From contig JBFXGO010000002.1 of assembly GCA_050239825.1 (NCBI GenBank), positions 817-64,816 of the forward strand: a stretch of 64,000 nucleotides of DNA. The letters are read 5' to 3'. The notes beneath the pieces were generated by a model. It searched no databases, had not been told where the DNA came from, and saw only the letters and a program-made list of their open reading frames with translations. The position numbers were made by a program, and so were the translations under genes. Shown piece by piece: positions 7,640-63,716 of the stretch (within the stretch, counting starts at the first letter, position 1; every line of letters begins with the position of its first letter). This DNA is from a bacterium (GTDB lineage: Bacteria > Hydrothermota > 32-111).

Positions 7640-7751
7640 TCTCCTCTTTAATATTATATATTTTACTTTTTTAAATTATAAAGTCAACAATAATTGTGAA
7701 TTGTTTCTAATCTAAATTTAGAATCAATTATCAAAGAGCCAAGGACCAAGA

Positions 7752-8783
7752 TTATTCTGAGGCGGCGCACCGGAACCCGCCACCGTCGATCACGAAGGCC
7801 GGGTCAATGTTGCCGCGGTCGGCAGTGCGCATGTTGCCGACACCGCCGTACCACGAGCCGCCGCGAAGAACTCTTTCTGAGCCGCTATTCGGCCCCTTAG
7901 GATTCTTGTATTTACTGGTTCTGTAATAACTCTCTCCATACCTGTCATTACACCATTCCCATACATTACCTGACATATCATAACAGCCATAAGGACTCCT
8001 TCCATTCTCATAGCTTCCTACTGGGGATGTGTATTTGTAGCCGTCCTCTGTTCCCTCATAATTGCATCTGTTTGTTCCGGGGTTTTCATTACCCCATGGG
8101 TATTCCCTGCCATCCGTTCCCCTTGCCGCCTTCTCCCATTCCGCCTCTGTGGGTAACCTTAAATCCGCCCAATCGCAATATGCCTTCGCATCATTCCAAC
8201 TGACATTAACTACAGGATAATCTGGATAACTTGTAAAATAACTGCTCATTCCGTCAAATCTCGGTTCTGGTGGGTAGCTCCTCCCCGTCTCGTCGCAGAA
8301 CTTCTTATACTGTTTGTTTGTCACCTCATATTTCATTATGTAATACCCGTCAAGGTAAACTTTATGCACGGGTTTTTCGTCATCATAATCCCAGCTCCCC
8401 ATTGTAAACTCTCCGGCTGGTATATATATCAAGACACTCCCGTCTATCGAATTTTCATATTCATCATATCCGTTTGCATTCCTTTTTATTAGTGTTAGTG
8501 TTCTGGTAGAGACATTTAACATTAGATTAATAAATACTATGAATCCAATCAATAAGAGTCCAATAAAAAAACCTATTCTGTCAAACTCAAGAATGTTGAA
8601 CTTTAAAATAACCAGAGATACTAAGATATATAAGACCGGAAATGTAAAATTTATCAACCACTTAATTCTATTTACTTTCATCCTATTTTTAAACTCTTCA
8701 GATTCTTGATATTGAGTCAACAGCTCTTCATATCTTTTTTGGATTTCTTTGTCTAAATTAACTAAGTTTGTCATTTTATCCAT
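7752..8783 (-). CDS. Membrane protein with extracytoplasmic FGE-sulfatase (SUMF1-like) domain; paralog B
   Basis: Same motifs as 293-1228 (NVSWNDAKAYCDWAD, GNVWEWCNDRYGESYY, RVLRGGSW). Has two internal hydrophobic segments rather than one. Conserved cytoplasmic N-terminal motif YEELLTQYQESEEFKNR matches YDELLTKYKESEEYKKR in paralog A. Confidence 0.75.
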   Translation of the reverse strand: MDKMTNLVNLDKEIQKRYEELLTQYQESEEFKNRMKVNRIKWLINFTFPVLYILVSLVILKFNILEFDRIGFFIGLLLIGFIVFINLMLNVSTRTLTLIKRNANGYDEYENSIDGSVLIYIPAGEFTMGSWDYDDEKPVHKVYLDGYYIMKYEVTNKQYKKFCDETGRSYPPEPRFDGMSSYFTSYPDYPVVNVSWNDAKAYCDWADLRLPTEAEWEKAARGTDGREYPWGNENPGTNRCNYEGTEDGYKYTSPVGSYENGRSPYGCYDMSGNVWEWCNDRYGESYYRTSKYKNPKGPNSGSERVLRGGSWYGGVGNMRTADRGNIDPAFVIDGGGFRCAASE

Positions 8784-8988: not shown

Positions 8989-9020
8989 TAATGGTTATTG
9001 GCAAAATAAAAGTTAACCGC
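8989..9020. repeat. Copy 1 of a 32-bp direct repeat (TAATGGTTATTGGCAAAATAAAAGTTAACCGC). Copy 2 lies at 9831-9862.
   Basis: 31/32 identical direct repeats about 840 bp apart, bracketing the gene fragment at 9284-9712. Confidence 0.6.
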
Positions 9021-9283: not shown

Positions 9284-9712
9284 TTATTCAATAATTTCCC
9301 AGTATCCCAATTTATCACTGCCTATTCTTTTTATTTTGCCTTCACTCTTAAGTTTGCTTATGTTCCACTCAATGCCCCTTCGTGAAAGACCTATCACCAC
9401 TTCAAGTTCTTTAATTGTTATATTTGGTTTTTGTCTGATTGCAGAGATGATTTTCTCCACAGTTTTCTCCACAATTTTCTCCGAACTCTGCATATTTTTT
9501 CTTTTGAATGTCACTAAAAAGAAATCTCCAACTTCTTCAAAAGTAGTTTCTGATTCTAATTTCATTATCTTACCGATTCCTGTTCCCCATTTTTCTATAT
9601 ATTTAATTCTATGGAAAATTTCAGAAATTAGTTCATTTCTCCGTATTGAAATCACTGCTTCCTTTAATTGAGTAAGAGACTCTTTGAATTCCAATGTTTC
9701 TGTTTCTTTCAT
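9284..9712 (-). pseudogene. C-terminal fragment (HATPase_c_4-like plus winged-HTH) of a Schlafen/AlbA_2-type putative DNA-binding ATPase. The N-terminal domain is missing.
   Basis: KYIEKWGTGIGKIMKLESETTFEEVGDFFLVTFKRK resembles the C-terminal module of divergent-AAA/AlbA_2 family proteins. Only 142 aa. Flanked by 32-bp direct repeats. Confidence 0.45.
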
Positions 9713-9830: not shown

Positions 9831-9862
9831 TAATGGTTATTGGCAAAATAAAAGTCAACCGC
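9831..9862. repeat. Copy 2 of the 32-bp direct repeat
   Basis: TAATGGTTATTGGCAAAATAAAAGTCAACCGC. One mismatch to copy 1. Confidence 0.6.
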
Positions 9863-9877
9863 GGGGGAATTGATTTT

Positions 9878-10456
9878 TATGCCGAGAAAGCCTAAAATAA
9901 GAGGAATAAAACAGAAAGGAGAGTATGTAAAAAAAAAAGGATTAAAATACGTCAAAGGGATAACGGAATGTATTTTGAGGAAGGGGAAACGAAGTGTTAT
10001 ATAGCGAGGAAAACAGGAATGAGCAAGAACTTTGTGATAAGATGGACCCAATCAAGGGATCAGGATTTTACAGAGGATAACAGAGGGTGGGAGAAGGGCA
10101 AGATGCGTAAAAGGGAGAAAGACACAACTTTTATTATACTCCCCAAAAAGGTATCAAGTTTTATAGGCATAAACTCGGCAATTAAGAAGTCAGGCAAGAG
10201 TGTTAACGGCAATGGCAAAATAAGCAAAATGGGTAACAGTTATGTGAGAAAGATGTTTATGATGGGAGCCAGAACCGCAATAAACTCCAATGTTGGCTGT
10301 AAGGCGATGAACGAACGGTTGACTGCAAAGGATAAAGCATACAGAGTCAGAATGATAGCTGTCGGTCATAAACTTTTAAGACAGGCATTTGCTGTTGCTA
10401 AACAGGGTGTTAAATATAATCTTGATATTTACAATACTGTTATGCGAACCTCTTGA
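9878..10456 (+). mobile_element. Decayed mosaic transposase remnant. IS630/Tc1-like HTH N-terminal pieces in two frames, plus an IS110-family-like C-terminal segment.
   Basis: MPRKPKIRG ORF runs to a stop after about 50 codons. A second frame carries YIARKTGMSKNFVIRWTQ (HTH_Tnp-like). The C-terminus SKMGNSYVRKMFMMGARTAINSN...AKDKAYRVRMIAVGHKLLRQAFAVAKQG resembles the conserved IS110 transposase C-terminal region. No intact transposase is present. Confidence 0.5.
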
Positions 10457-10595
10457 CAAAAAGCACAGTACATGCTGAACGCCTCTATTCATTTCTCTAC
10501 AGTGAAGCAACTATCAATCCGCTAATTGCGATCGGATTTTGTCTTCTCTTCTTCTTCGAACCCGCAACTCGAAACTATTAACTTCCTTTTTGCTT

Positions 10596-10760
10596 TGCCC
10601 GCAGCACACGGTGTGCAAAGCACTCTTGCCCCCGGAATCTTCTTCAACTCTCAACTATAAACCATTAACTGTTTTTTCTTGCTCACAGCTCACGGATTAT
10701 GGCGTCTTCACTGCCCACAGCACAAGGCACATGGTGTGCGAAGCACTCTTGCCCCCGCGG
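10596..10760. repeat. Two direct copies of a GC-rich hairpin-containing motif (GCACACGGTGTGCAAAGCACTCTTGCCCCCG), 117 bp apart
   Basis: 10599-10632 and 10716-10757 share about 30 bp. Each contains the palindrome GCACAC-G-GTGTGC or GCACAT-G-GTGTGC. Confidence 0.45.
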
Positions 10761-10801
10761 CGTTGAATAATGTCATTTATTCCCCGACTGATTTAATCTC
10801 C

Positions 10802-15157: not shown

Positions 15158-15173
15158 TTTTTTCAATCCCCCT

Positions 15174-15672
15174 GTAAAGACAAAATCTTACTCAGCAGTG
15201 TCACCCTGAACGCTTCTATGGTTATGACTATCGTGAAGGGTCTATCAGTTTATTGCTTATTGATAATTGAAGATTGAGCTGGGGCTGCACGCGGGCATAG
15301 CGTCGACTCACACACTCCGCTTCGCCGCTTTATCAAGATGGGAAAGCGGAGCAAGGGGTCGGCCACTTGATGGGCGTCTGCGCGGAGCGTCCTCGCCGAC
15401 TTGTAGCTTTCACTTTCAATAAGTTAATTAATTGATTGTCCTCATGAGAAGCATTGAAAAGACGAGCGCTGTGGACAGGCTTCTCATTCGGAATTGTAAA
15501 GACAAAATATTAATCAGCAGTATATTGAGTTATGACTGTACTGGAATTTTTCCTCGGAACTGTAAAGGCAATTTATTTACTCAGCTCCCCGTATTATGCG
15601 CATGGCACACGGCTCATGGCTCAAGGCTGATTTTGTGGCTGCACGCTGGCATAGCGTCGGCTCACACAACAA
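15174..15672. repeat. Second locus of the mosaic interspersed repeat family. It holds module B, one full GC-rich core, module C and one truncated core.
   Basis: 15174-15420 is near-identical to 54478-54720. 15540-15672 matches 54770-54900. The array starts 17 bp after the dagK-like stop codon. Confidence 0.9.
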
Positions 15673-53079: not shown

Positions 53080-53147
53080 TGTGGATAATATAAGAACAAC
53101 TTTGGTTTTTCCACATCAACTTCGGTTAACAACATAATTGTGAATAT
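53080..53147. promoter_or_regulatory. DnaA-box cluster in the dnaA-dnaN intergenic region. Candidate oriC or DnaA autoregulatory site.
   Basis: TGTGGATAA at 53080-53088 is a perfect reverse-complement of TTATCCACA. TTTTCCACA at 53107-53115 has 1 mismatch. TGTGAATAT at 53139-53147 is degenerate. AT-rich 177-bp spacer. Confidence 0.5.
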
Positions 53148-53254: not shown

Positions 53255-54364
53255 ATGAAATTTCACGTTGACAAACAAGAGTTTTTGAAAAACCTCAATA
53301 CAATATCAAGCATTGTTCCTGCAAAACCCATTGTAACAATAATCTCCAATATTATGATTGAAGCGAAAAAAGAGACATTGTCATTTTCCTCTACTGATTT
53401 TGAAATAACAATGCATTCAGAGATGCCTGCAACAGTCACTGAGGACGGAGTGATTGTTATAAATGCAAAGACAATAGTTGAACTTGTAAGAAAACTTCCT
53501 GAAGGCGAACTCTCAATATCTCTCTCCAATGATGAAGTATCTATAAAATCAAAGTCAGGCATTTATAAAATGCCTGTAATCAAGAAAGATGATTATGTGG
53601 AAATTTCAAGAATAGAAAAAAACAAGATGTTCAATGTTGATTCTCTTCCATTGAAATCTGCAATAGACAATTCAGTATTTGCAGTTTCCAAAGATGCCGT
53701 AAAAGTTGCAATAACCGGAGTTCTTCTTGAAGGAGCCGGAAAGAATCTGACATTTGTTGGAACAGACGGACACAGGTTGGCATTTTATTCAATCAAAGAT
53801 ATTTTTGAAAAACCCATATCAAATTCTGTTATAATTCCTCCAAAGGTTTTGACGATTCTTAGAGACCTTATTGATGATGTGGATGAATTCAGCATGGGTT
53901 TTGATGAAAAGAGAATTATGTTCAAAGTCAAGACAATAGAAGTCTGGGCAAAACTCATAGAGGGTACATATCCTGATTACAAACGAGTCATACCAACGGA
54001 TAACAATAAAGTCATGATTGTCAAAAAGGATGACCTTATAAATTCTCTTAACATAATAAATGTGTTTACAAATCCAAATACGAGGCTTGTCAAATTTGAA
54101 ATAGAGAGCGGCAAGCTTATAATAAATGCGTATCAGAATCAGACAGGAGAGGGGACGGAGTTTATCGAAGTCGACTATGAAGATAAAGAGAAGCTTGTGA
54201 TAGGATTCAACAATAACTATCTTCTTGAAATACTAAAACGGATAGAGACTGAGAATGTAAAGTTTAAATTCAAGGGAGAGATGTTTGCTGTGATAGTTGA
54301 AAACGAAATGAGCAAGGTTGATCAGGAGGCAATTTATATTATAATGCCTCTCAGATTAAAGTAA
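53255..54364 (+). CDS. dnaN: DNA polymerase III beta sliding clamp
   Basis: Three-domain beta-clamp architecture. MKFHVDKQEFLKNLNTISSIVP start. Follows dnaA. Confidence 0.95.
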   Translation: MKFHVDKQEFLKNLNTISSIVPAKPIVTIISNIMIEAKKETLSFSSTDFEITMHSEMPATVTEDGVIVINAKTIVELVRKLPEGELSISLSNDEVSIKSKSGIYKMPVIKKDDYVEISRIEKNKMFNVDSLPLKSAIDNSVFAVSKDAVKVAITGVLLEGAGKNLTFVGTDGHRLAFYSIKDIFEKPISNSVIIPPKVLTILRDLIDDVDEFSMGFDEKRIMFKVKTIEVWAKLIEGTYPDYKRVIPTDNNKVMIVKKDDLINSLNIINVFTNPNTRLVKFEIESGKLIINAYQNQTGEGTEFIEVDYEDKEKLVIGFNNNYLLEILKRIETENVKFKFKGEMFAVIVENEMSKVDQEAIYIIMPLRLK

Positions 54365-54390
54365 AAACAGATTTATATTATTGAGTGCAA

Positions 54391-54420
54391 AGAGGCGGGG
54401 TAACTCCCGCCTCTTTTATT
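54391..54420 (+). terminator. Rho-independent terminator after dnaN
   Basis: AGAGGCGGG-GTAACT-CCCGCCTCT followed by TTTATT. Confidence 0.7.
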
Positions 54421-54477
54421 GAAAATGTAAAAGAGTGAAAATATAGGAAGGTTAGAATGTGAGGGAGATTGAGTAAA

Positions 54478-56330
54478 GCTAAAATCTTACTCAGCGGTGT
54501 CACCCTGAACGCCTCTATGGTTATGACTATCGTGAAGGGTCTATCAGTTTATTGCTTATTGATAATTGAAGATTGAACTGGGGCTGCACGCAGGCGTAGC
54601 GTCGGCTCACACACTCCGCTTCGTCGCTTTATCAAGATGGGATAGCGTAGCGAGGGGTCGCCCACTTGATGGGCGTCTGCGCGGAGCGTCCTCGCCGACT
54701 TTGAGCTTTCATTTTCAATAAGAATTGATTTGCTTGTCCTCGGAAAAACATTGAATAGCAGTGCGGAGATGCACTGGAATTTTTCCTCGGAAATGTAAAG
54801 ACAAAATCTTACTCAGCTCCCCGTATTTTGCTCAAGGCACATGGCTCACGGCTCATGGCTGATTTTGGGGGCTGCACGCGGGTGTAGCGTCGGCTCACAC
54901 ACTCCGCTTCGCCGCTTAATCAAGATGGGATAGCGTAGCAAGGGGAGAACCACTTGATGGGCGTCTGCGCGGAGCGTCCTCGCCGACTTGTAGCTTTCGT
55001 GTATCAATAAGTTAATTAATTGATTGAATCTTCACAAAGCATTGGCGAGGGTGTAATGTGCGCGAGCGCACATGATAGACGCCTCGGGCTGCACCAGAAC
55101 TTTGTGAAGATTACTGTAAAGACAAAATCTTACTCAGCGGTGTCACCCTGAACGCCTCTATAGTTATGACTATCGTGAAGGGTCTATCAGTTTATTGGTT
55201 ATTGATAATTGAAGATTGTTCTGGGGCTGCACGCGGGTGTAGCGTCGGCTCACACACTCCGCTTCGCCGCTTAATCAAGATGGGTTAGCGGAGCAAGGGG
55301 ACAACCACTTGATGGGCGTCTTCGCGGAGCGTCCTCGCCGACTTTGAGCTTTCACTTTCAATAAGTTAATTAATTGAATGAATCTTCTAAAACCATTGGC
55401 TGGGGTGTAATGGACGCGAGCGCACATGATAGACACTTCGGGTTGCACCAGAACTTTGTGAAGATTATTGTAAAGACAAAATCTTACTCAGCAGTATCAC
55501 CCTGAACGCCTCTATGGTTATGACTATAGTGAAGGGTCTATCAGTTTATTGTTAATTGATTATTGAAGATTGTTCTGGGGCTGCTGGCGGGCTTAGCGTC
55601 GGCTCGCACACTTCGCTTCGCCGCTTAATCAAGATGGGATAGCGGAGCAAGAGGTCGCCCACTTGATGGGCGTCTGCGCGGAGCGTCCTCGCCGACTTGT
55701 AGCTTTCGTGTATCAATAAGTTAATTAATTGCCTGAATCTTCTAAAACCATTGGCGCGGGTGTAATGGACGCGAGCGTCCATGATAGAAAAAACGGGTTG
55801 CACCAGAAGTTTTAGAAGATTATTGAAAAGAATAAATATTAATCAGCAGTATATTGAGTGATGACTGCACTGGAATTTTTCCTCGGAAATGTAAAGACAA
55901 GTTATTTACTCAACTCCCCGCATTAAGCTCAAGGCACATGGCTCACGGCTCATGGCTGATTTTGGGGCTGCACGCGGGTGTAGCGTCGGCTCACACACTC
56001 TGCTTCGCCGCTTAATCAAGATGGGTTAGCGGAGCAAGGGGACAACCACTTGATGGGCGTCTGCGCGGAGCGTCCTCGCCGACTTGTAGCTTACACTCTC
56101 AATAAGAATTGATTTGCTTGTCCTCGGAAAAACATTGAATAGCAGTGCGGAGATGCACTGGAATTTTTCCTCGGAAATGTAAAGACAAAATCTTACTCAG
56201 CGGTGTCACCCTGAACGCCTCTATGGTTATGACTATCGTGAAGGGTCTATCAGTTTATTGTTAATTGATTATTGAAGATTGTTCTGGGGCTGCACGCGGG
56301 TGTAGCGTCGGCTCACACACTCCGCTTTTG
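54478..56330. repeat. Array of a mosaic GC-rich interspersed repeat family. Five full and one truncated ~130-bp cores (GGGGCTGCACGCGGGTGTAGCGTCGGCTCACACACTCCGCTTCGCCGCTTAATCAAGATGGG...GTCCTCGCCGACTTGTAGCTTTC) are joined by three alternative flanking modules.
   Basis: Core copies start at about 54580, 54867, 55223, 55577, 55964 and 56286 (truncated). Spacing is irregular (about 290-390 bp) and the linker modules repeat among themselves, so this is not a CRISPR array. The ORFs called inside (such as 55552-55803) are artefacts. Confidence 0.9.
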
Positions 56331-56373
56331 CTCCTATTGACAATATTGTTTAAATATTATATATTGAAATATT

Positions 56374-58512
56374 ATGGTTAAAAAAGCATTTAAAAATTTT
56401 AAAAAGAGCAAGAAGACCAAAAAAACAGTAAACACCGCGATATTTGTTTTTGGACTTATTGTTTTTATTGCTGTCTTTGCGGCAGTGGGCTTTGCAGTTA
56501 CAATGTATTTCAGTCTTCAGAAAGAGATTCCAACCATGACAGATATGTTCATATACTCGGCTCCTTCAGCCACTTTGATATATGATGACAACAACAGAAA
56601 AGTGACGGAACTCTTCCTTGAGAAAAGGATGCCGATTAAACTCAAAGAGCTACCTCAATACTCGATAGACGCAGTCATATCGCTTGAAGATCAGCAATTT
56701 TACTCGCATTGGGGAATAAATGTAGCGAGATTTTTTGTGGTTTTGACAAAGAATATGCTGACATTAAAAAAAGGAGCGGGAGCATCTACCATAACACAAC
56801 AGCTTGCAAGGAACATGTTCCTCACAATGGAGAAGACATGGACAAGGAAGATAAAAGAGGCTCTCATAACCATAAATCTTGAGCGCAACTTTTCAAAGGA
56901 TGAAATTCTTGAAATGTATTTCAACCAGATAAACTATGGCTCGGGAGCTTACGGCATAGAGGCCGCATCAAACATGTATTTCAATAAATCTGCGCGGGAG
57001 CTCACTCTTGCAGAGGCAGCAATGCTTGCGGGAATTCCGCAGATTCCGGAAAAATTCAATCTTTTCAGGCATTATGACAATGCCAAAAAACGCCAGAAGC
57101 TATGTCTAAGCAATATGCTTCAAGAAGGATACATATCAAAGGAAGAGTATGAGGATGCCGTTGATGACAGTGTGATAGTGATAAAAGGCTCCAAAGATGC
57201 AGAGTATGGAAGATACTTTATAGAGGAGGTCAGAAAAGAGGTCATATCAAGGTTTGGCATGAATACTCTCTATAAGGGCGGTCTGAAAATCTATACAACA
57301 ATGAATTCCGATATGCAGAGAGAGTCAGAAAAAGTTGTGGAAAAAAAGATGCTCTATTTTGAAAAAATGTACAAATTCAAAAATACAAAAGAAAAGTATG
57401 ATGAAATATTTTCAAAAGACACGGCAATAACTGTTCCCCCGCAGTATCTTCAGGCAAGTATGGTAATAATTGAAAATGAGACAGGAGAGGTCAAGGCAAT
57501 AGTCGGAGGCAGGGATTTTGAACAGTCCGAATACAACAGGGTCTTACAATCGAAGAGGCAGCCCGGTTCAATTTTTAAAATATTCCTCTTTTCAGCCGCA
57601 ATAGAGAGCGGGATGAATCCGGGAGACATAATTATGGATACTCCGGTGGTTCTTGACGACGGAAGTGACACCCCGTATAAACCGAGAAATTTCGACGGGG
57701 ATTTTTTGGGGCCTATACCTTTGCGCAAAGCTCTTGCACTTTCAAGAAATGTAACGGCTATTAGGCTTATAAAGAGCATAGGACCCGGAACTGTAGTAAA
57801 ACACGCAAAGAAGCTGGGAGTTGAATCGCAGTTGACTCCGGTGCTCTCTCTGGCTCTCGGTTCAAGTGATGTCACTCTCTTTGAAATGGTGAGGGCATTC
57901 TCCGTATTTCCAAACAAAGGAATACTCAGAAAGACGAGCATGATACGATATATTGAGGATGCTCAGGGAAATGTGATTTTTGAAAATGACAATCTTGAAT
58001 CAAGAGTGATGGATGACGATGACGCATACATAGTGACAAACATGCTTGAAAGCGTTGTAAAAGAAGGCACTGCGGCTGGGCTTAAATATTACAAGTTCAA
58101 TGTGCATATAGGCGGAAAGACGGGAACTACCGATGATTATTCGAATACATGGTTTGTTGGTTTTACAAAAGAGTATACCGCTGGTGTCTGGGTGGGCTTC
58201 GACAAACTCCGCACAATAGCCGATAAGGCAACCGGAGCGGTGCTTGCGCTTCCGATATGGGCTGAGACAATGAAGCCCTTTGTCAACAATGCCGATTCTC
58301 TGCCGTTTCCTCAGACAGACAGTATAATCCATGTGACAGTATGCCGCGAATCCGGGCAGATAGCAACGAAATACTGCAAGTTCATACGGGATGAAATATA
58401 TAAAAAAGGTCACGAACCCAAGGTGAGTTGTGAAAAGCATATAAAGGGCTACTCAACCAATCAGGATTTTGATTTTTCAAAACAGGACATTCTCAAAGAT
58501 GATGACCTGTGA
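56374..58512 (+). CDS. mrcA: Bifunctional class A penicillin-binding protein (PBP1A; transglycosylase plus transpeptidase)
   Basis: GT51 motif SLEDQQFYSHWGINV. Transpeptidase SxxK (RQPGSIFKIF), SRN, KTGTT. Confidence 0.9.
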   Translation: MVKKAFKNFKKSKKTKKTVNTAIFVFGLIVFIAVFAAVGFAVTMYFSLQKEIPTMTDMFIYSAPSATLIYDDNNRKVTELFLEKRMPIKLKELPQYSIDAVISLEDQQFYSHWGINVARFFVVLTKNMLTLKKGAGASTITQQLARNMFLTMEKTWTRKIKEALITINLERNFSKDEILEMYFNQINYGSGAYGIEAASNMYFNKSARELTLAEAAMLAGIPQIPEKFNLFRHYDNAKKRQKLCLSNMLQEGYISKEEYEDAVDDSVIVIKGSKDAEYGRYFIEEVRKEVISRFGMNTLYKGGLKIYTTMNSDMQRESEKVVEKKMLYFEKMYKFKNTKEKYDEIFSKDTAITVPPQYLQASMVIIENETGEVKAIVGGRDFEQSEYNRVLQSKRQPGSIFKIFLFSAAIESGMNPGDIIMDTPVVLDDGSDTPYKPRNFDGDFLGPIPLRKALALSRNVTAIRLIKSIGPGTVVKHAKKLGVESQLTPVLSLALGSSDVTLFEMVRAFSVFPNKGILRKTSMIRYIEDAQGNVIFENDNLESRVMDDDDAYIVTNMLESVVKEGTAAGLKYYKFNVHIGGKTGTTDDYSNTWFVGFTKEYTAGVWVGFDKLRTIADKATGAVLALPIWAETMKPFVNNADSLPFPQTDSIIHVTVCRESGQIATKYCKFIRDEIYKKGHEPKVSCEKHIKGYSTNQDFDFSKQDILKDDDL

Positions 58513-60354: not shown

Positions 60355-60893
60355 GAGAATGCTTTAAATCCAGTAAGATAGATATTTCAAAAAAACAAGC
60401 GGAATCATTTGAATTATACCTCAACCTCATAGTTAAATGGAACAAGAGTGTCTCCCTCGTTTCTCACAGAGATGAGATATCTCTGATTGAAAAACACCTT
60501 CTTGATTCTGCCGCAGGTTTGGTTTCCTCGGGGATAGAAGACAAAGAAAAGATAACGGATTTGGGTTCCGGTAATGGATTTCCTGCAATCCCGATAAAAA
60601 TTCTGCTTCCCGATACGATTGTGGATATGGTTGAAGTAAACCAGAGAAAAGCTGCGTTTTTGAAAGAGGCTGTAAGAGTTCTTGAAATACAAAACATCAA
60701 TGTCCTATGTGAAAGAGTTGAGGATTATGAATTCTCTTTCACAGAAAAAATTACAGCGAGGGCTTTTAAACCCATAGAAGAAATTAAAAAGATTCTTTTG
60801 CCCTCAAGGTTCTGCGGAGAGATTATTGTCTGGGAAAAGAGAAGTGGCGCAAGAGTCGCAAAATACCCGTTCTGTAATGTGGAAAAGATGTGA
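60330..60893 (+). CDS. rsmG: 16S rRNA (guanine527-N7)-methyltransferase RsmG (GidB). The 5' boundary is uncertain because there is no in-frame ATG, GTG or TTG before 60519.
   Basis: The frame open from 60306 encodes FELYLNLIVKWNKSVSLVSHRDEISLIEKHLLDSAAG (RsmG N-terminus) and DLGSGNGFPAIPIKILLPD (SAM-binding motif). The supplied ORF (60519-60893) starts at an internal TTG. Candidate non-canonical starts are ATC at 60330 and ATA at 60351. Confidence 0.7.
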   Translation: MRYTAEEIRECFKSSKIDISKKQAESFELYLNLIVKWNKSVSLVSHRDEISLIEKHLLDSAAGLVSSGIEDKEKITDLGSGNGFPAIPIKILLPDTIVDMVEVNQRKAAFLKEAVRVLEIQNINVLCERVEDYEFSFTEKITARAFKPIEEIKKILLPSRFCGEIIVWEKRSGARVAKYPFCNVEKM

Positions 60894-60895
60894 AA

Positions 60896-60911
60896 TGTTC
60901 CACGTGGAACA
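60896..60911. promoter_or_regulatory. parS centromere site TGTTCCACGTGGAACA (perfect 16-bp palindrome)
   Basis: Matches the parS consensus TGTTNCACGTGNAACA. Overlaps the rsmG stop. Confidence 0.7.
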
Positions 60912-61003
60912 TTTGCAACCGAAATATTATTCCGCTAAGTTATTGTAAATAAGATACATTTGATTTTTCCGTACAAAATAGTTTTCCACAAAACAAATTT
61001 CAT

Positions 61004-61019
61004 TGTTCCACGTGGAACA
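61004..61019. promoter_or_regulatory. Second parS site TGTTCCACGTGGAACA, 49 bp upstream of parA. A DnaA-box-like TTTTCCACA lies at 60982-60990.
   Basis: Identical 16-bp palindrome. Confidence 0.7.
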
Positions 61020-61067
61020 AAAAAAATGCTTGAAATATTTTCTTCTTTGTGGTAATATTGCCCTCTG

Positions 61068-61856
61068 ATGAAAAGAATAATTGCAATTGCAAATCAAAAG
61101 GGCGGAGTCGGAAAAACAACCACCGCCGTAAATCTTGGAGCGGCTCTCGGGGTGGCTGAAAAGAAGACACTGCTTATTGACATAGACCCTCAGGCAAATG
61201 CCACATCCTCTTTGGGATATTATGACAAGAATTTTCTCGGAAGAAGCGTTTATGATGTTCTTGCTAACAAAGTTTCAATTGAGGATACGATTGTACACAC
61301 AGAGCTTGAGTATCTTGACCTTCTGCCGTCAGACATATCTCTTGCCGCAACGGATGTTGAGCTTGTCGGGCTTGAAAGAAAAGAGCATCTGTTAAAGCAT
61401 TCTCTCAGCCCCATTTTAAACAGGTATGAATATATTCTTATTGATTGTCCGCCCTCTCTTCAAATTCTGACTCTCAATGCGCTTGTGGCGGCTCATTCGA
61501 TATTGATTCCGGTTCAGGCGGAGTTTTACGCTGTTGAGGGGTTGGCGAAACTTCTCAATACGATTAACAGCGTGCGTCAGGCTTTGAATGACGACCTTGA
61601 AATAGAGGGTGTTTTGATTACAATGTATGATTCCCGTCTCACATTGGCTCGGCAGGTTGCGGACGAGGTTCTCAACTATTTCAAGAGTTCTGTTTATAAG
61701 ACATACATTCCGAGAAATGTGCGTCTTGCCGAAGCACCGTCATTCGGAAAACCAATTATAATTTTTGATCCGGTTTCAAACGGCTCAAAGGCTTATTTGG
61801 AGCTGGCAAAGGAGTTGATTGAAAAGCATGAAAAAGGCGTTGGGTCGAGGTCTTGA
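61068..61856 (+). CDS. parA: Chromosome partitioning ATPase ParA/Soj
   Basis: Deviant Walker A NQKGGVGKTTT. Full-length ParA architecture. Confidence 0.95.
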   Translation: MKRIIAIANQKGGVGKTTTAVNLGAALGVAEKKTLLIDIDPQANATSSLGYYDKNFLGRSVYDVLANKVSIEDTIVHTELEYLDLLPSDISLAATDVELVGLERKEHLLKHSLSPILNRYEYILIDCPPSLQILTLNALVAAHSILIPVQAEFYAVEGLAKLLNTINSVRQALNDDLEIEGVLITMYDSRLTLARQVADEVLNYFKSSVYKTYIPRNVRLAEAPSFGKPIIIFDPVSNGSKAYLELAKELIEKHEKGVGSRS

Positions 61857-62670
61857 ATCTCTGATTTCGGGAACCGAGCAGAGAGAGATTAGGCAGATAT
61901 CTATTAAGCAGGTCAAACCCAATCCGTTTCAGCCAAGAAAGACCTTTGTAGAAGAGGACCTTTCGGAACTGACGGAATCAATCAGAGCAAATGGTGTGCT
62001 TCAGCCGATAACAGTAAGAAGAAAGAATGATTTCTTTGAAATTGTCGCCGGAGAGAGGCGGTTCAGAGCATCTGTCTCTGCAGGTCTTAAAGAGATTCCC
62101 GCAGTGATAAAAGAGATTCCTGACGAAAAAATGCTTGAGTTCGCTCTTGTCGAAAACATACAGAGGGAAAATCTGAATGCTCTTGATGAGGCGATGGGAT
62201 ACAGAGATCTGTCAGACAAGTTTCACCTTACGCACGAAGTTATTTCGGAAAGAATGGGAAAATCCCGTTCGCACATATCAAATATGCTGAGAATCCTTGA
62301 GCTTGAAACTCACATAAGAAAGATGATTTCGGAAAATACACTCTCATTCGGTCATGCAAAGGTTCTCTTATCCATAAAAGACAAAAACCGTCGTCTTTTA
62401 ATAGCGCAGAAAATTGTAAGAGAAAAACTCTCGGTAAGAGATGTTGAAAACCTTCTCTCCTCAAAGCAAAAAAGTCTTCCTGTTAAAGAGAAGAGAGTCG
62501 ACCATAAATCAAGCCACATAAAGAATCTCGAAAACAGAATCTCTGAGCAGTTTTCAAGAAAAGCAGAGATTTCATATAAAAAAGGAAAGGGAAAGGTCTC
62601 TCTTGAATTTTATTCGGATGATGATTTCAAAGTTCTTTTAGAGAAACTTGGGCTTAAAAATTTTGATTAG
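61819..62670 (+). CDS. parB: Chromosome partitioning protein ParB/Spo0J
   Basis: GERRFRAS arginine patch. HTH region. Overlaps parA by 38 bp. Confidence 0.9.
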   Translation: MKSMKKALGRGLESLISGTEQREIRQISIKQVKPNPFQPRKTFVEEDLSELTESIRANGVLQPITVRRKNDFFEIVAGERRFRASVSAGLKEIPAVIKEIPDEKMLEFALVENIQRENLNALDEAMGYRDLSDKFHLTHEVISERMGKSRSHISNMLRILELETHIRKMISENTLSFGHAKVLLSIKDKNRRLLIAQKIVREKLSVRDVENLLSSKQKSLPVKEKRVDHKSSHIKNLENRISEQFSRKAEISYKKGKGKVSLEFYSDDDFKVLLEKLGLKNFD

Positions 62671-62678
62671 GAGTATAG

Positions 62679-63716
62679 ATGAAAAACATGCTTGAAACAG
62701 TCAAATCCCTCACTATGGCTATAGGTCCTTCAGGCGCCGAAGATTCTCTGTTTAAGGTTGTGAAGAATCTTGTCAGAGGGTTTGATGTGAGTGTCGAAAA
62801 GGACAGAATGGGAAATATAATTGTAATGAAAAAAGGAAACAGAAAGGGAAGAGTCGCCTTTTTCACACACAATGATGAAATAGGTCTTATAGTGACTAAG
62901 ATAGATAAGGATTACCTTCGCTTTACAGAGGTGGGCGGATACGATGAAAAAGTTCTTTTGGGGCAAGAGGTCATTGTTTATGGAAAGAAAGAGATAAAGG
63001 GTATAATAGGAGCAAAACCACCGCACCTTCAGACAAAAGGAGAAAGCGATAAGTTCCTTAAATTCGAGGACTTATACATAGATATCGCAATGAAAAACAA
63101 GGATATAGTTAAATATATATCAGTTGGAGACAGGGTGGTAATAAGAAGCGACTTTGCAGAAATGAAGCAAAATTCAGTATGTGTGAAGGCTCTCGACAAT
63201 CGTTCCTGCGGAGCAATAATACTTTACATGCTCAAGTACCTTGAGAATGTTAAGAGTCATCCGGACATTTACCTTGTTTTGAACTCTCAGGAGGAGACAA
63301 CTATGACCGGGTCTAAAACCTCCGCATATAAATTGAATCCGGATGTAGCATTTGTTCTTGATGTGACATTTGCCAAACAAACCGGATATGAACAGGGATA
63401 TGCTCTCGACAAAATAGGATTCGGAATGGGAGCAAATATCTGCAAGAGAATCTTTGATTTTGTCAGAAAAAGCGCAGATGAAAACAATATCCAGTATTTT
63501 ATAGAGCCGCTTCCTTCAATGTCAGGCACTGACGCCTATGCTGTGCAGACTGTAAAGAGGGGAGTGACCACAATGCTGATATCTCTTCCCATAAGAAATA
63601 TGCACTCTCCTGTTGAAATAGCCAGCACCAAGACAATGGAGGATGCTTCAAAATTCCTCTCACTTCTTATGGCAACAATCAAGACGGAAGATTTCAAAGA
63701 AAGAATATTAAAATAA
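62679..63716 (+). CDS. M42-family (FrvX/YsdC-like) aminopeptidase
   Basis: TMAIGPSGAEDSL start. M42 metal-site region FFTHNDEIGLIV. Family-typical length. Confidence 0.85.
   Translation: MKNMLETVKSLTMAIGPSGAEDSLFKVVKNLVRGFDVSVEKDRMGNIIVMKKGNRKGRVAFFTHNDEIGLIVTKIDKDYLRFTEVGGYDEKVLLGQEVIVYGKKEIKGIIGAKPPHLQTKGESDKFLKFEDLYIDIAMKNKDIVKYISVGDRVVIRSDFAEMKQNSVCVKALDNRSCGAIILYMLKYLENVKSHPDIYLVLNSQEETTMTGSKTSAYKLNPDVAFVLDVTFAKQTGYEQGYALDKIGFGMGANICKRIFDFVRKSADENNIQYFIEPLPSMSGTDAYAVQTVKRGVTTMLISLPIRNMHSPVEIASTKTMEDASKFLSLLMATIKTEDFKERILK

Follow-up and report, generated by a model that had tools for sequence, protein, structure and literature searches.

A Probable Lineage-Specific Mosaic Repeat with Two Hairpin Domains Beside dnaN in Candidate Division WOR-3

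What is the array of GC-rich repeats that lies between dnaN and mrcA, the gene of a class A penicillin-binding protein (PBP), in the 64,000-nucleotide (nt) stretch of bacterial DNA studied here (the window)? The original prediction had offered three answers: a new small-RNA (sRNA) family, an element resembling a MITE (a miniature inverted-repeat transposable element), or iterons associated with the replication origin. Our analyses indicated that the array looks most like a selfish mosaic repeat of the sort represented by bacterial interspersed mosaic elements (BIMEs), Neisseria intergenic mosaic elements (NIMEs) and MITEs. On balance, it is probably a lineage-specific, non-autonomous mosaic repeat of a small clade of candidate division WOR-3, which has been spreading and recombining within genomes.

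Organization of the Arrays in the Window

Pfam scans, which covered the window open reading frames (ORFs) of at least 120 amino acids (aa) up to 60047 and left out four ORFs at 60519-63716, identified dnaA and dnaN upstream of the array and mrcA downstream. There are 2009 non-coding bases from the dnaN stop (54364) to the mrcA start (56374), and the array spans 54473-56327 within them. Its left neighbor is the intrinsic terminator of dnaN (54392-54420; GAGGCGGGGTAACTCCCGCCTC, then a T-run), and to its right is a promoter-like site for mrcA (56337-56365; TTGACA, 17 nt, TATATT). Both were undamaged, and the promoter-like site was kept in relatives with or without an array. All of these features, and all parts of the arrays described below, are on the + strand.

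The five full cores and one truncated core that had been predicted between the dnaN terminator and the mrcA promoter were borne out by the sequence, by repeat finding, by Tandem Repeats Finder (TRF) and by pattern searches. The full cores, each of 120 nt, are at 54580-54699, 54868-54987, 55223-55342, 55577-55696 and 55964-56083, and the truncated sixth is at 56286-56327. Two core pattern searches gave seven and six matches, against none in shuffles or expected, and TRF reported a period of 354 nt (2.8 copies, 89% matches) over 54868-55852. As had also been claimed, the cores are GC-rich relative to the genome, with a GC content of 0.64-0.65 versus 0.39 for the window, and linkers recur between them in varying order, namely modules A, C and X plus two types of post-core hairpin. 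The size of the repeat was a different matter, as the conserved unit is not the ~130-bp core but ~250 nt, running through a second hairpin to a conserved box. The copies in the array are 7-14% apart and their modules stand in a fixed, non-periodic order: box-A-U1-C-U2-A-U3-A-U4-X-C-U5-A-truncated core, where U1 to U5 are the full units. The box is present at every module boundary in both window arrays.

The array starts with a box at 54473-54495 (GTAAAGCTAAAATCTTACTCAGC), which is two bases off the internal boxes (GTAAAGACAAAATC...). Module A (84 nt), a pre-core linker, contains CTGAACGCCTCTAT-N13-GTGAAG-N5-ATCA. Its first copy is at 54496-54579, it recurs at 55139-55222, 55493-55576 and 56202-56285, and its 3' part repeats the post-core TCAATAAG region in inverted form. 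Module C (50 nt) is a pre-core linker with 8-nt periodic GGCTCANG repeats, present at 54818-54867 and 55915-55963, and module X (55848-55914) is a partial unit in which a short spacer leads into the 3' half of a type-1 second hairpin, with a box behind it (partial match at 55865-55913).

Units 1 (54580-54817) and 5 (55964-56201) each comprise a core, a type-1 second hairpin and a box, with the post-core motif following the core in unit 1; they are 93% identical across 239 nt. Units 2, 3 and 4 have type-2 second hairpins, each followed by a box. That of unit 2 (54868-55138) has the stem AATCTTCACAAAG/CTTTGTGAAGATT and the inner hairpin ATG-TGCGC-GA-GCGCA-CAT, and that of unit 4 (55577-55847) has a compensated stem, AATCTTCTAAAAC/GTTTTAGAAGATT, followed by a variant box (TTGAAAAGAATAAATATTAATCAGC). 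Unit 3 (55223-55492) is chimeric: its left arm and the left half of its inner hairpin are as in unit 4 and its right halves are as in unit 2. The stems of its type-2 hairpin are mismatched (three mismatches) because their halves derive from these two different units. The truncated core at the right edge of the array ends ...CACACACTCCGCTT.

The repeat was not confined to one locus or one assembly, as units were found at several loci in several assemblies. A second array in the window (15173-15668), between a diacylglycerol-kinase-like gene and a gene for a 925-aa protein, has the order box-A-U-X-C-truncated core. It contains a core at 15281-15400 (unit to 15518), an X-like module with its box at 15519-15585, a C-like module at 15586-15635 and a truncated core at 15636-15668 that ends ...CACACA. 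The two window loci have in common a 176-nt block of box-X-box-C-core start, with 88.6% identity.

Anatomy of the Conserved Unit

The anatomy of the unit was taken from an alignment of 18 full copies from the window and its relatives. The unit (245-280 nt) opens with the core hairpin; an AT-rich linker (TATCAATAAG) then leads to a second hairpin, and last comes a box of ~23 nt (TGTAAAGAYAAR..TTAATCA), which reads TGTAAAGACAAAATCTTACTCAGC in the window and TGYAAAGMTAAGAWATTTAATCAAATG in relatives.

The core is a long interrupted hairpin of 98-120 nt across copies that opens, at its outer-stem foot, with (G/A)TAG-CGTC. The CGTC, which overlaps the stem, was invariant in 17/17 typical cores, and the tetranucleotide before it was GTAG in nine of the 17, ATAG in five and another sequence in three. 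The outer stem (GTCGGC/GCCGAC) is followed by a 4x4 internal loop, a second core stem of nine positions (ACACTCCGC/GCGGAGCGT), one of which is A.C in every copy, and then the third stem (CGCTT.ATC/GATGGGCG); the internal loops are 4-5 nt long and conserved. The three helices originally drawn for the RNA, GUCGGC/GCCGAC, CUCCGC/GCGGAG and AUCAAG/CUUGAU, were all present in the predicted fold. The tip of the core is exchangeable and was found in three forms: AAGATGGG..21 nt..CCACTTG, a short hairpin TC-GG-NNGA-CC-TC, and TGGGGACAC..GTGTCCCCA.

On the 3' side of the core are TTGYAGCTTTCGTGTATCAATAAG and an AT-rich stretch. The post-core motif TATCAATAAGTTA (window 54990-55010, with equivalent sites in most units) fits WATCAANNNNTTR, the consensus for integration host factor (IHF), and it hints at a candidate site for a DNA-bending protein between the two hairpins. 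The second hairpin has a 12-13-bp stem that closes on an invariant CATTG. Its type-1 interior holds AATAG and a 6-bp hairpin with a GGAGNN loop, and its type-2 interior is 45-60 nt long and contains an ATG-N5-N2-N5-CAT hairpin in seven of ten copies. The invariant unpaired motifs of the unit are CATTG, AATAG, GCGGAG and the symmetric TC/TC loop.

Several smaller features accompanied the unit. In addition to the post-core IHF-like motif of the units, module A bears TATCAGTTTATTG. A small 5' hairpin, GCTGCAC/GTGTAGC, was predicted in the window copies and was not kept in relatives, so it was dropped as a conserved helix. Tandem runs with an 8-nt period were present just upstream of many cores (window 54835-54860 and 15600-15630; L018 690-715; L033 11815-11845; also L041 and L022, where L numbers denote loci of related genomes). 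The sequence of these runs varied by genome (GGCTCANG, GGCACAAG, CGGCAYAC, ACCAGCGT, AACTATNA, CTCGTAAC), as did their copy number. A diverged paralogue of the core (module F; ..GCGCTCATTCGCACATCA...GACGTCCTCATTCGCTTT) was found at L033 11190-11345 and 11670-11825 and at L041 1080-1195. Its outer stem is non-complementary, but the short hairpin at its tip (AAC-TC-GG-CAGA-CC-TC-GTT) has been retained through compensatory changes.

Conservation of the Helices

For the core arms, 17 copies were compared after both arms had been joined and the tips replaced by GAAA, which gave a gapless alignment. On the + strand 90.0% of cells were paired, and four pairs and ten cells were changed on both sides. 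This pairing was reached by none of 500 shuffles, and slid controls were 30-45% paired. The second stem was the best-covarying stem: its 12 distinct arm combinations were 91% paired, versus 56% for arms combined across copies, and its 229 positions held 208 Watson-Crick pairs and no G-U. The inner ATG..CAT hairpin occurred in four sequence variants and was fully complementary in all copies except the chimeric unit 3. In the short tip, the TC/TC loop stayed constant while its closing pairs changed (ATC/GAT, GTC/GAC, AAC/GTT). Together, these data indicated that the helices are real and are maintained across subfamilies.

The reverse complement of the core arms was 89.7% paired. Among the individual stems, the two outer ones (P1 and P2) paired better on the minus strand (99% and 97%, versus 96% and 85%) and the third (P3) paired better on the plus strand (91% versus 77%). 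On the plus strand, besides an A.C that never varies, some copies have U.G and others C.A in the core helices, and counting G.U against A.C in these helices gave no strand decision. The copy at 55577 does carry the CUUCGC that had been reported for it. The earlier argument that the resulting G-U wobble hints at a transcribed RNA did not hold up, as the same helices contain A.C mismatches, which are G.U on the opposite strand, and the best-covarying stem is free of G-U.

The 354-nt repeat folded better than its shuffles (z = -3.3), whereas the core alone was not clearly more stable than its shuffles (z = -1.7 for the plus and -2.7 for the minus strand). The pairing pattern suits DNA inverted repeats whose arms travel together at least as well as it suits RNA. 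Because the second stem had no G-U and the core paired equally on both strands, a DNA inverted repeat fits better than an RNA whose structure is selected on one strand.

Distribution of the Unit and Empty Sites

Approximately 250 kb of related DNA was examined. The 18 full units came from five sources, all close relatives in candidate division WOR-3: the organism of the window, the metagenome-assembled genome (MAG) STE_119 (L018), the contig L033 (from ENA, HAV93037 lineage), contigs from JGI sample Ga0074195 and one contig from JGI sample Ga0172375. Where a source had DnaN on record, that protein was at least 89% identical to the DnaN of the window, and one source is named candidate division WOR-3. 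The window DnaN itself had about a dozen close homologues, after which identity dropped to 34%.

A scan with the pattern of invariant columns matched five contigs, and a 20-mer scan of species genomes returned 19 chance matches in GC-rich genomes and one true relative. A 22-mer containing GCGGAG had no match in JGI metagenomes, two pattern scans found no unit in viral contigs, and blastn in distant mode gave no match in phage genomes and plasmids.

The locus downstream of dnaN was variable among the relatives. Six of them have a dnaN-mrcA spacer of 27-380 nt that contains no unit: L044 (27 nt), L045 (113 nt), L046 (135 nt), L030 of STE_119 (141 nt, with units elsewhere in this MAG), L022 (270 nt) and L023 (380 nt). 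In L033, the same spacer holds a 1.6-kb array with a different set of modules, and a second array lies between gidB and parA. The core arms of the two window loci had 95% identity with each other, versus 87% with those of the array that L033 carries at the orthologous locus. Fragments of the core 5' end also occur alone, as do partial units. Eight of 11 arrays were co-directional with their flanking genes, and the other three were antisense to their neighbors.

The relatives contained two further palindromic elements. A GTAG-tagged hairpin of ~30 nt (GTAGGGGCGGACCTGTGTGTCCGCCC), similar to a repetitive extragenic palindrome (REP), stands directly 3' of the unit box at L033 11599-11630, 12095-12126 and 17901-17932, in L040, L042 and L043, and at L022 6669; none was seen in the window. 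One occurrence in L040 has an inverted loop, and in L041 a near-identical hairpin with a T-run acts as a gene terminator. In addition, a palindromic module of ~140 nt with the ends GTCATTSCGAGC..GCTCGCAATGAC is present in opposite orientations at L033 12385-12535 and L034 11330-11480, which are of the same lineage. After this shared module L034 diverges from L033 into different genes, reflecting either a repeat rearrangement or a chimeric assembly.

A Repeat That Spreads and Recombines Within Genomes

The modular structure of the repeat, its restricted distribution, the empty sites, the homogeneity of copies within a genome and the conserved helices are what a model for its spread has to accommodate. 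We infer that the units move in trans by means of an enzyme encoded elsewhere, and that DNA rather than RNA is the relevant structure. In the model we propose, the building block is the ~250-nt unit with its two DNA hairpin domains. Units are strung head to tail with a small set of linkers between them (A, C and X in the window and others in relatives, including the GTAG-tagged REP-like hairpin). A trans-acting enzyme that recognizes the hairpins and the box would add copies at "safe" intergenic gaps between a terminator and a promoter, and unequal recombination and gene conversion among these copies would later remodel the arrays. We propose that the latter processes gave rise to the 354-nt period, the shared multi-module blocks, the chimeras and the truncated terminal cores.

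Of the three earlier suggestions, an element like a MITE was nearest to the evidence, in view of the empty sites, the likeness of copies within a genome, the partial and chimeric copies and the assembly breaks. The repeat is nevertheless no classical MITE, as a search of the unit ends showed no terminal inverted repeats and no target-site duplication was seen.

A number of observations weigh against the reading of the array as a spreading repeat. No transposase, integrase or REP-associated tyrosine transposase (RAYT) gene adjoined any unit. Because its two ends do not form inverted repeats and no duplicated target site was visible, no known transposition chemistry can be assigned to the unit. 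The invariant unpaired motifs and the exchangeable tips are also typical of functional RNAs, and most arrays, eight of the 11, point as their flanking genes do. Gene conversion alone, without transposition, could be the cause of the similarity within genomes. Lastly, the genomes with empty sites differ by 7-40% in DnaN, so the closest empty sites could in principle reflect loss rather than gain.

Structured RNA as an Alternative

The alternative that fared best was that the units are genes for a structured non-coding RNA, forming a tandem sRNA array in which the hairpins are RNA helices and the function is cellular or encoded by the element. We consider this fairly unlikely. Tandem sRNA arrays are a known arrangement, and the unit has several properties expected of one, including its multi-domain build, compensatory changes, conserved unpaired motifs and tips that are swapped while the base of the helix is kept. 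The GC-rich cores stand in an AT-rich genome, the 354-nt repeat folds beyond its shuffles, the type-1 second hairpins resemble terminators, and most arrays are co-directional with their neighbors.

In favor of the earlier suggestion of a new small-RNA family are the compensatory changes in its helices; the G-U argument is not, and no promoter was found inside the array. A scan for sigma-70-type promoters over 54300-56450 returned three sites, versus 3.3 expected; these were the mrcA promoter and two sites inside dnaN, with none in the array, which moreover lies behind the strong dnaN terminator. Rfam searches of the window and seven related loci gave no match at the gathering score, and the array gave none on the repeats at E values up to 10, so no known RNA family corresponds to the repeats. 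No tRNA or tmRNA was found. The stems also disagreed as to strand, with P1 and P2 better paired on the minus strand and P3 on the plus, the best-covarying stem held no G-U in 229 positions, and the core alone had only the modest z-scores given above. Moreover, units are missing from the corresponding loci of close relatives, many copies are truncated or chimeric, and three of the 11 arrays are antisense to their neighbors.

A coding function was considered for the same region and rejected. One minus-strand frame is open in four of the six window cores; a profile of it matched no protein among 5.8 billion, and the tip variants differ by 22 nt, which breaks the open frame.

An IS110-Family Remnant and the Mobilizing Enzyme

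Among the scanned ORFs of the window, the sole mobile-element gene was a truncated transposase gene of the IS110 insertion sequence (IS) family at 9968-10456 (+ strand), a 162-aa ORF in which a C-terminal Transposase_20 domain (Pfam) follows an unrelated N-terminal stretch. An A-like module (CATGCTGAACGCCTCTAT-N13-GTGAAG-N5-ATCA) begins 15 nt past its stop and, together with other mosaic pieces, occupies 10472-10770 (+ strand). The pieces in 10520-10770 include 8-nt periodic repeats, a AACTATAAACCATTAACTG piece of a kind found in the L033 arrays and a 31-nt duplicate (10604-10634 and 10727-10757). The region 9968-10770 is therefore a third mosaic patch in the window, one without a unit. The A-like module has the blocks and spacing of module A; its local alignment score was 31, versus a shuffle maximum of 29, over a short match. 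An A-like module upstream of a core in L039 aligned to it with a score of 41. A word-based protein homology search with the transposase fragment retrieved only the fragment itself, and tblastn with it over all collected loci retrieved nothing further.

IS110-family elements insert into REP-type repeats. In Pseudomonas putida KT2440, ISPpu9 has A/B boxes that delimit tnp and ssr9 modules, and it mobilizes a box-flanked small-RNA module that has no transposase gene (PMC12288879). IS110-family elements also express a non-coding guide RNA from a long non-coding region beside tnp (PMC11187229). By analogy, the modules here could be tied to a recombinase of the IS110/IS1111 (DEDD) family, either as box-delimited passengers moved via circles, as ssr9 is by ISPpu9, and possibly encoding a guide RNA, or as a repeated insertion target, as REPs are for ISPpu9, ISPpu10 and IS621. 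We regard such a link as rather improbable. It would account for the fact that the only mobile-element gene found in 64 kb is an IS110-family C-terminal fragment, followed at once by an A-like module with identical block spacing and by more mosaic pieces, and for the ~23-nt box that bounds every module of the window arrays, which is formally like the A/B boxes of ISPpu9 (PMC12288879). On the other hand, no unit adjoins the fragment and no full-length gene was found. The core loops, at 4-5 nt, look too short and too conserved for guide loops, and by inspection no loop was complementary to the box or flanks, as bridge and seek RNAs need. The A-like match is short, and one fragment in one window could be a coincidence.

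The IS110 fragment is a lead to a possible partner of the repeats. The GTAG-tagged hairpin 3' of the box in relatives points equally to a RAYT-type enzyme; Pfam identified no RAYT among the scanned ORFs. Neither a structured-RNA role nor an IS110-linked mechanism is mutually exclusive with a mosaic repeat that spreads within genomes. We speculate, as a distinctly long shot, that the unit is a new kind of selfish structured module that is copied as box-delimited circles by an IS110-family or other hairpin-recognizing recombinase, with its tips and stems serving as exchangeable "slots". If this speculation is correct, what the arrays document is modular recombination guided by RNA or hairpins in a phylum that has not been cultured, and the unit could be the source of a guide or scaffold RNA that differs from the bridge and seek RNAs known so far.

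Integron-Type, Origin and Assembly Explanations

The core resembles the general architecture of attC sites: it is a 100-120-nt imperfect palindrome in which a 6-bp outer stem, an unpaired 4x4 spacer and an inner stem with one invariant mismatched base lead up to a variable terminal structure, and all copies in an array share one orientation. It nevertheless seems very unlikely that the cores form an integrase-less cluster of attC-like sites from an integron-type system, with the linkers as its cassettes. Neither the R'' (RYYYAAC) nor the R' (GTTRRRY) box is present, the feet of the core being GTCGGC and GCCGAC, and the mosaic pattern breaks at the box past the second hairpin and at the 5' end of the core rather than at its 3' foot. 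The would-be cassettes are 50-260 nt, non-coding and reused, and there was no tyrosine recombinase among the scanned ORFs.

The suggestion that the repeats are origin-associated iterons or DnaA-binding arrays for replication initiation can be set aside as extremely improbable: the array is directly 3' of dnaA-dnaN and the second L033 array, between gidB and parA, is beside DnaA-box-like sequences, but no DnaA-box-like 9-mer (TTATCCACA-like, at most one mismatch) occurs in 54473-56327 or 15173-15668, other units lie ~40 kb away between unrelated genes, and six relatives have no unit after dnaN. DnaA-box-like 9-mers were present at 53080 and 53107, in the dnaA-dnaN spacer, and at 60620-60982, around and downstream of a GidB-like ORF and before parA. 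These two clusters are candidate oriC positions outside the repeat arrays. The cumulative GC skew has its minimum near 48-52 kb.

An assembly artefact, in the form of a mis-joined or over-expanded repeat, is scarcely credible even though short-read assemblies break at the repeat and L034, which continues differently past its shared module, could be a chimera. In an independent short-read assembly of the same sample both junctions of the array with its flanks were reproduced, the contigs stopping 146 nt past dnaN and restarting 30 nt into the last core. Since both ends recur in this way, the array is not an artefact, and contigs that end inside the repeat are as expected for a multi-copy element. 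Furthermore, the copies differ from one another and stand in a fixed non-periodic order, and independent assembly of four further data sets produced similar arrays.

Comparison with Known Repeat Families

We return here to the array as a mosaic repeat and to the families that it resembles. Like BIMEs, which are built from REP sequences in Enterobacteria and Pseudomonas, the arrays are intergenic mosaics of GC-rich palindromic units and a few linker motifs, placed after terminators and between unidirectional genes. A BIME linker fits the IHF consensus, as does the AT-rich post-core motif here. Relatives of the WOR-3 repeat carry the GTAG-tagged hairpin, and the foot of the core has (G/A)TAG-CGTC; the GTAG/CGTC tags of REPs are as defined in PMC3733652. 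The unit differs from REPs and BIMEs in its length of 245-280 nt with two complex hairpins, in contrast to a palindrome of 20-40 nt, in having all array copies on one strand rather than in alternating orientation, in a GTAG that is not invariant (9/17) and in the lack of a RAYT gene among the scanned ORFs.

NIMEs consist of repeat modules of 50-150 nt that vary in order and number and are split by the short conserved dRS3, and BOX elements have a modular A-B(n)-C build with a stable predicted structure. Both the NIME and the pneumococcal BOX families have been reviewed (PMC3184786, PMC3049150). The WOR-3 arrays share with them modules in varying order and a short conserved separator. There is no sequence similarity, however, the WOR-3 separator is a direct box rather than an inverted repeat, and the unit is much longer and is conserved across genomes of the lineage.

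MITEs are likewise non-coding, structured, multi-copy and assembly-breaking, with presence/absence between relatives. In the WOR-3 unit, unlike in MITEs, the 5' end (GGCNGCA..TAGCGTCGGC) and the 3' box are non-complementary and inverted repeats are internal only, and no parent IS that shares its ends was found. No target-site duplication was seen at either window array, the empty sites being too diverged for base-by-base alignment. The arrays are also unlike CRISPR, in which short identical repeats (24-48 nt) alternate with unique spacers: their repeats measure 120-280 nt, the "spacers" are reused, and the scanned ORFs contained no cas domains.

With ssr9 and ISPpu9 of P. putida KT2440 the repeat shares small non-coding modules with short conserved boxes at several loci without a transposase gene, and an IS110-family remnant stands beside related sequence here, the published case being a selfish element that borrows a transposase (PMC12288879). 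Modules A, C and X have the box at their boundaries, as do the units, and the IS110 fragment lacks its 5' part. The two systems differ in that the ssr9 boxes support circle formation and the ssr9 module adjoins intact tnp copies (PMC12288879), whereas the WOR-3 arrays hold many tandem modules and no intact gene, circle or adjacency of unit and tnp was found. Unlike the arrangement of an IS110 bridge or seek RNA, what comes after the truncated gene at 9968-10456 is no more than an A-like linker, with no unit adjoining.

As it stands, the repeat is an uncommon but unsurprising selfish element with no demonstrated cellular role, and it is notable for the size of its unit and for its modular hairpin architecture. 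With it, the few families of this sort (BIME, NIME, BOX) gain a well-defined mosaic repeat that is large and unusual in structure, from a candidate phylum without cultured members, and it explains the assembly breaks beside dnaN in these genomes. Its clean compensatory changes, combined with wholesale swapping of tips, make it a useful test case for how palindromes are maintained at the level of DNA. If the IS110 lead were confirmed, modular box-delimited mobilization would extend beyond Pseudomonas.

Additional Observations

In L026 (GCA_964544145.1, 2996-4593), from a relative further removed, the called part of DnaA comprises just the last 109 aa, and ~1.6 kb upstream of it had no called gene; masked sequence or a disrupted dnaA could explain this. 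Within the window, a 32-nt direct repeat (97% identical) at 8989-9020 and 9831-9862 brackets a 142-aa minus-strand ORF at 9284-9712 with HATPase_c_4 and HTH_24 domains, and the ORF with its bracketing repeats may be a small inserted cassette. Two paralogous genes with FGE-sulfatase domains, at 254-989 and 7713-8445, have 84% DNA identity over 738 nt; between them lies a block with two genes for Ser/Thr protein kinases and one for a PP2C phosphatase.

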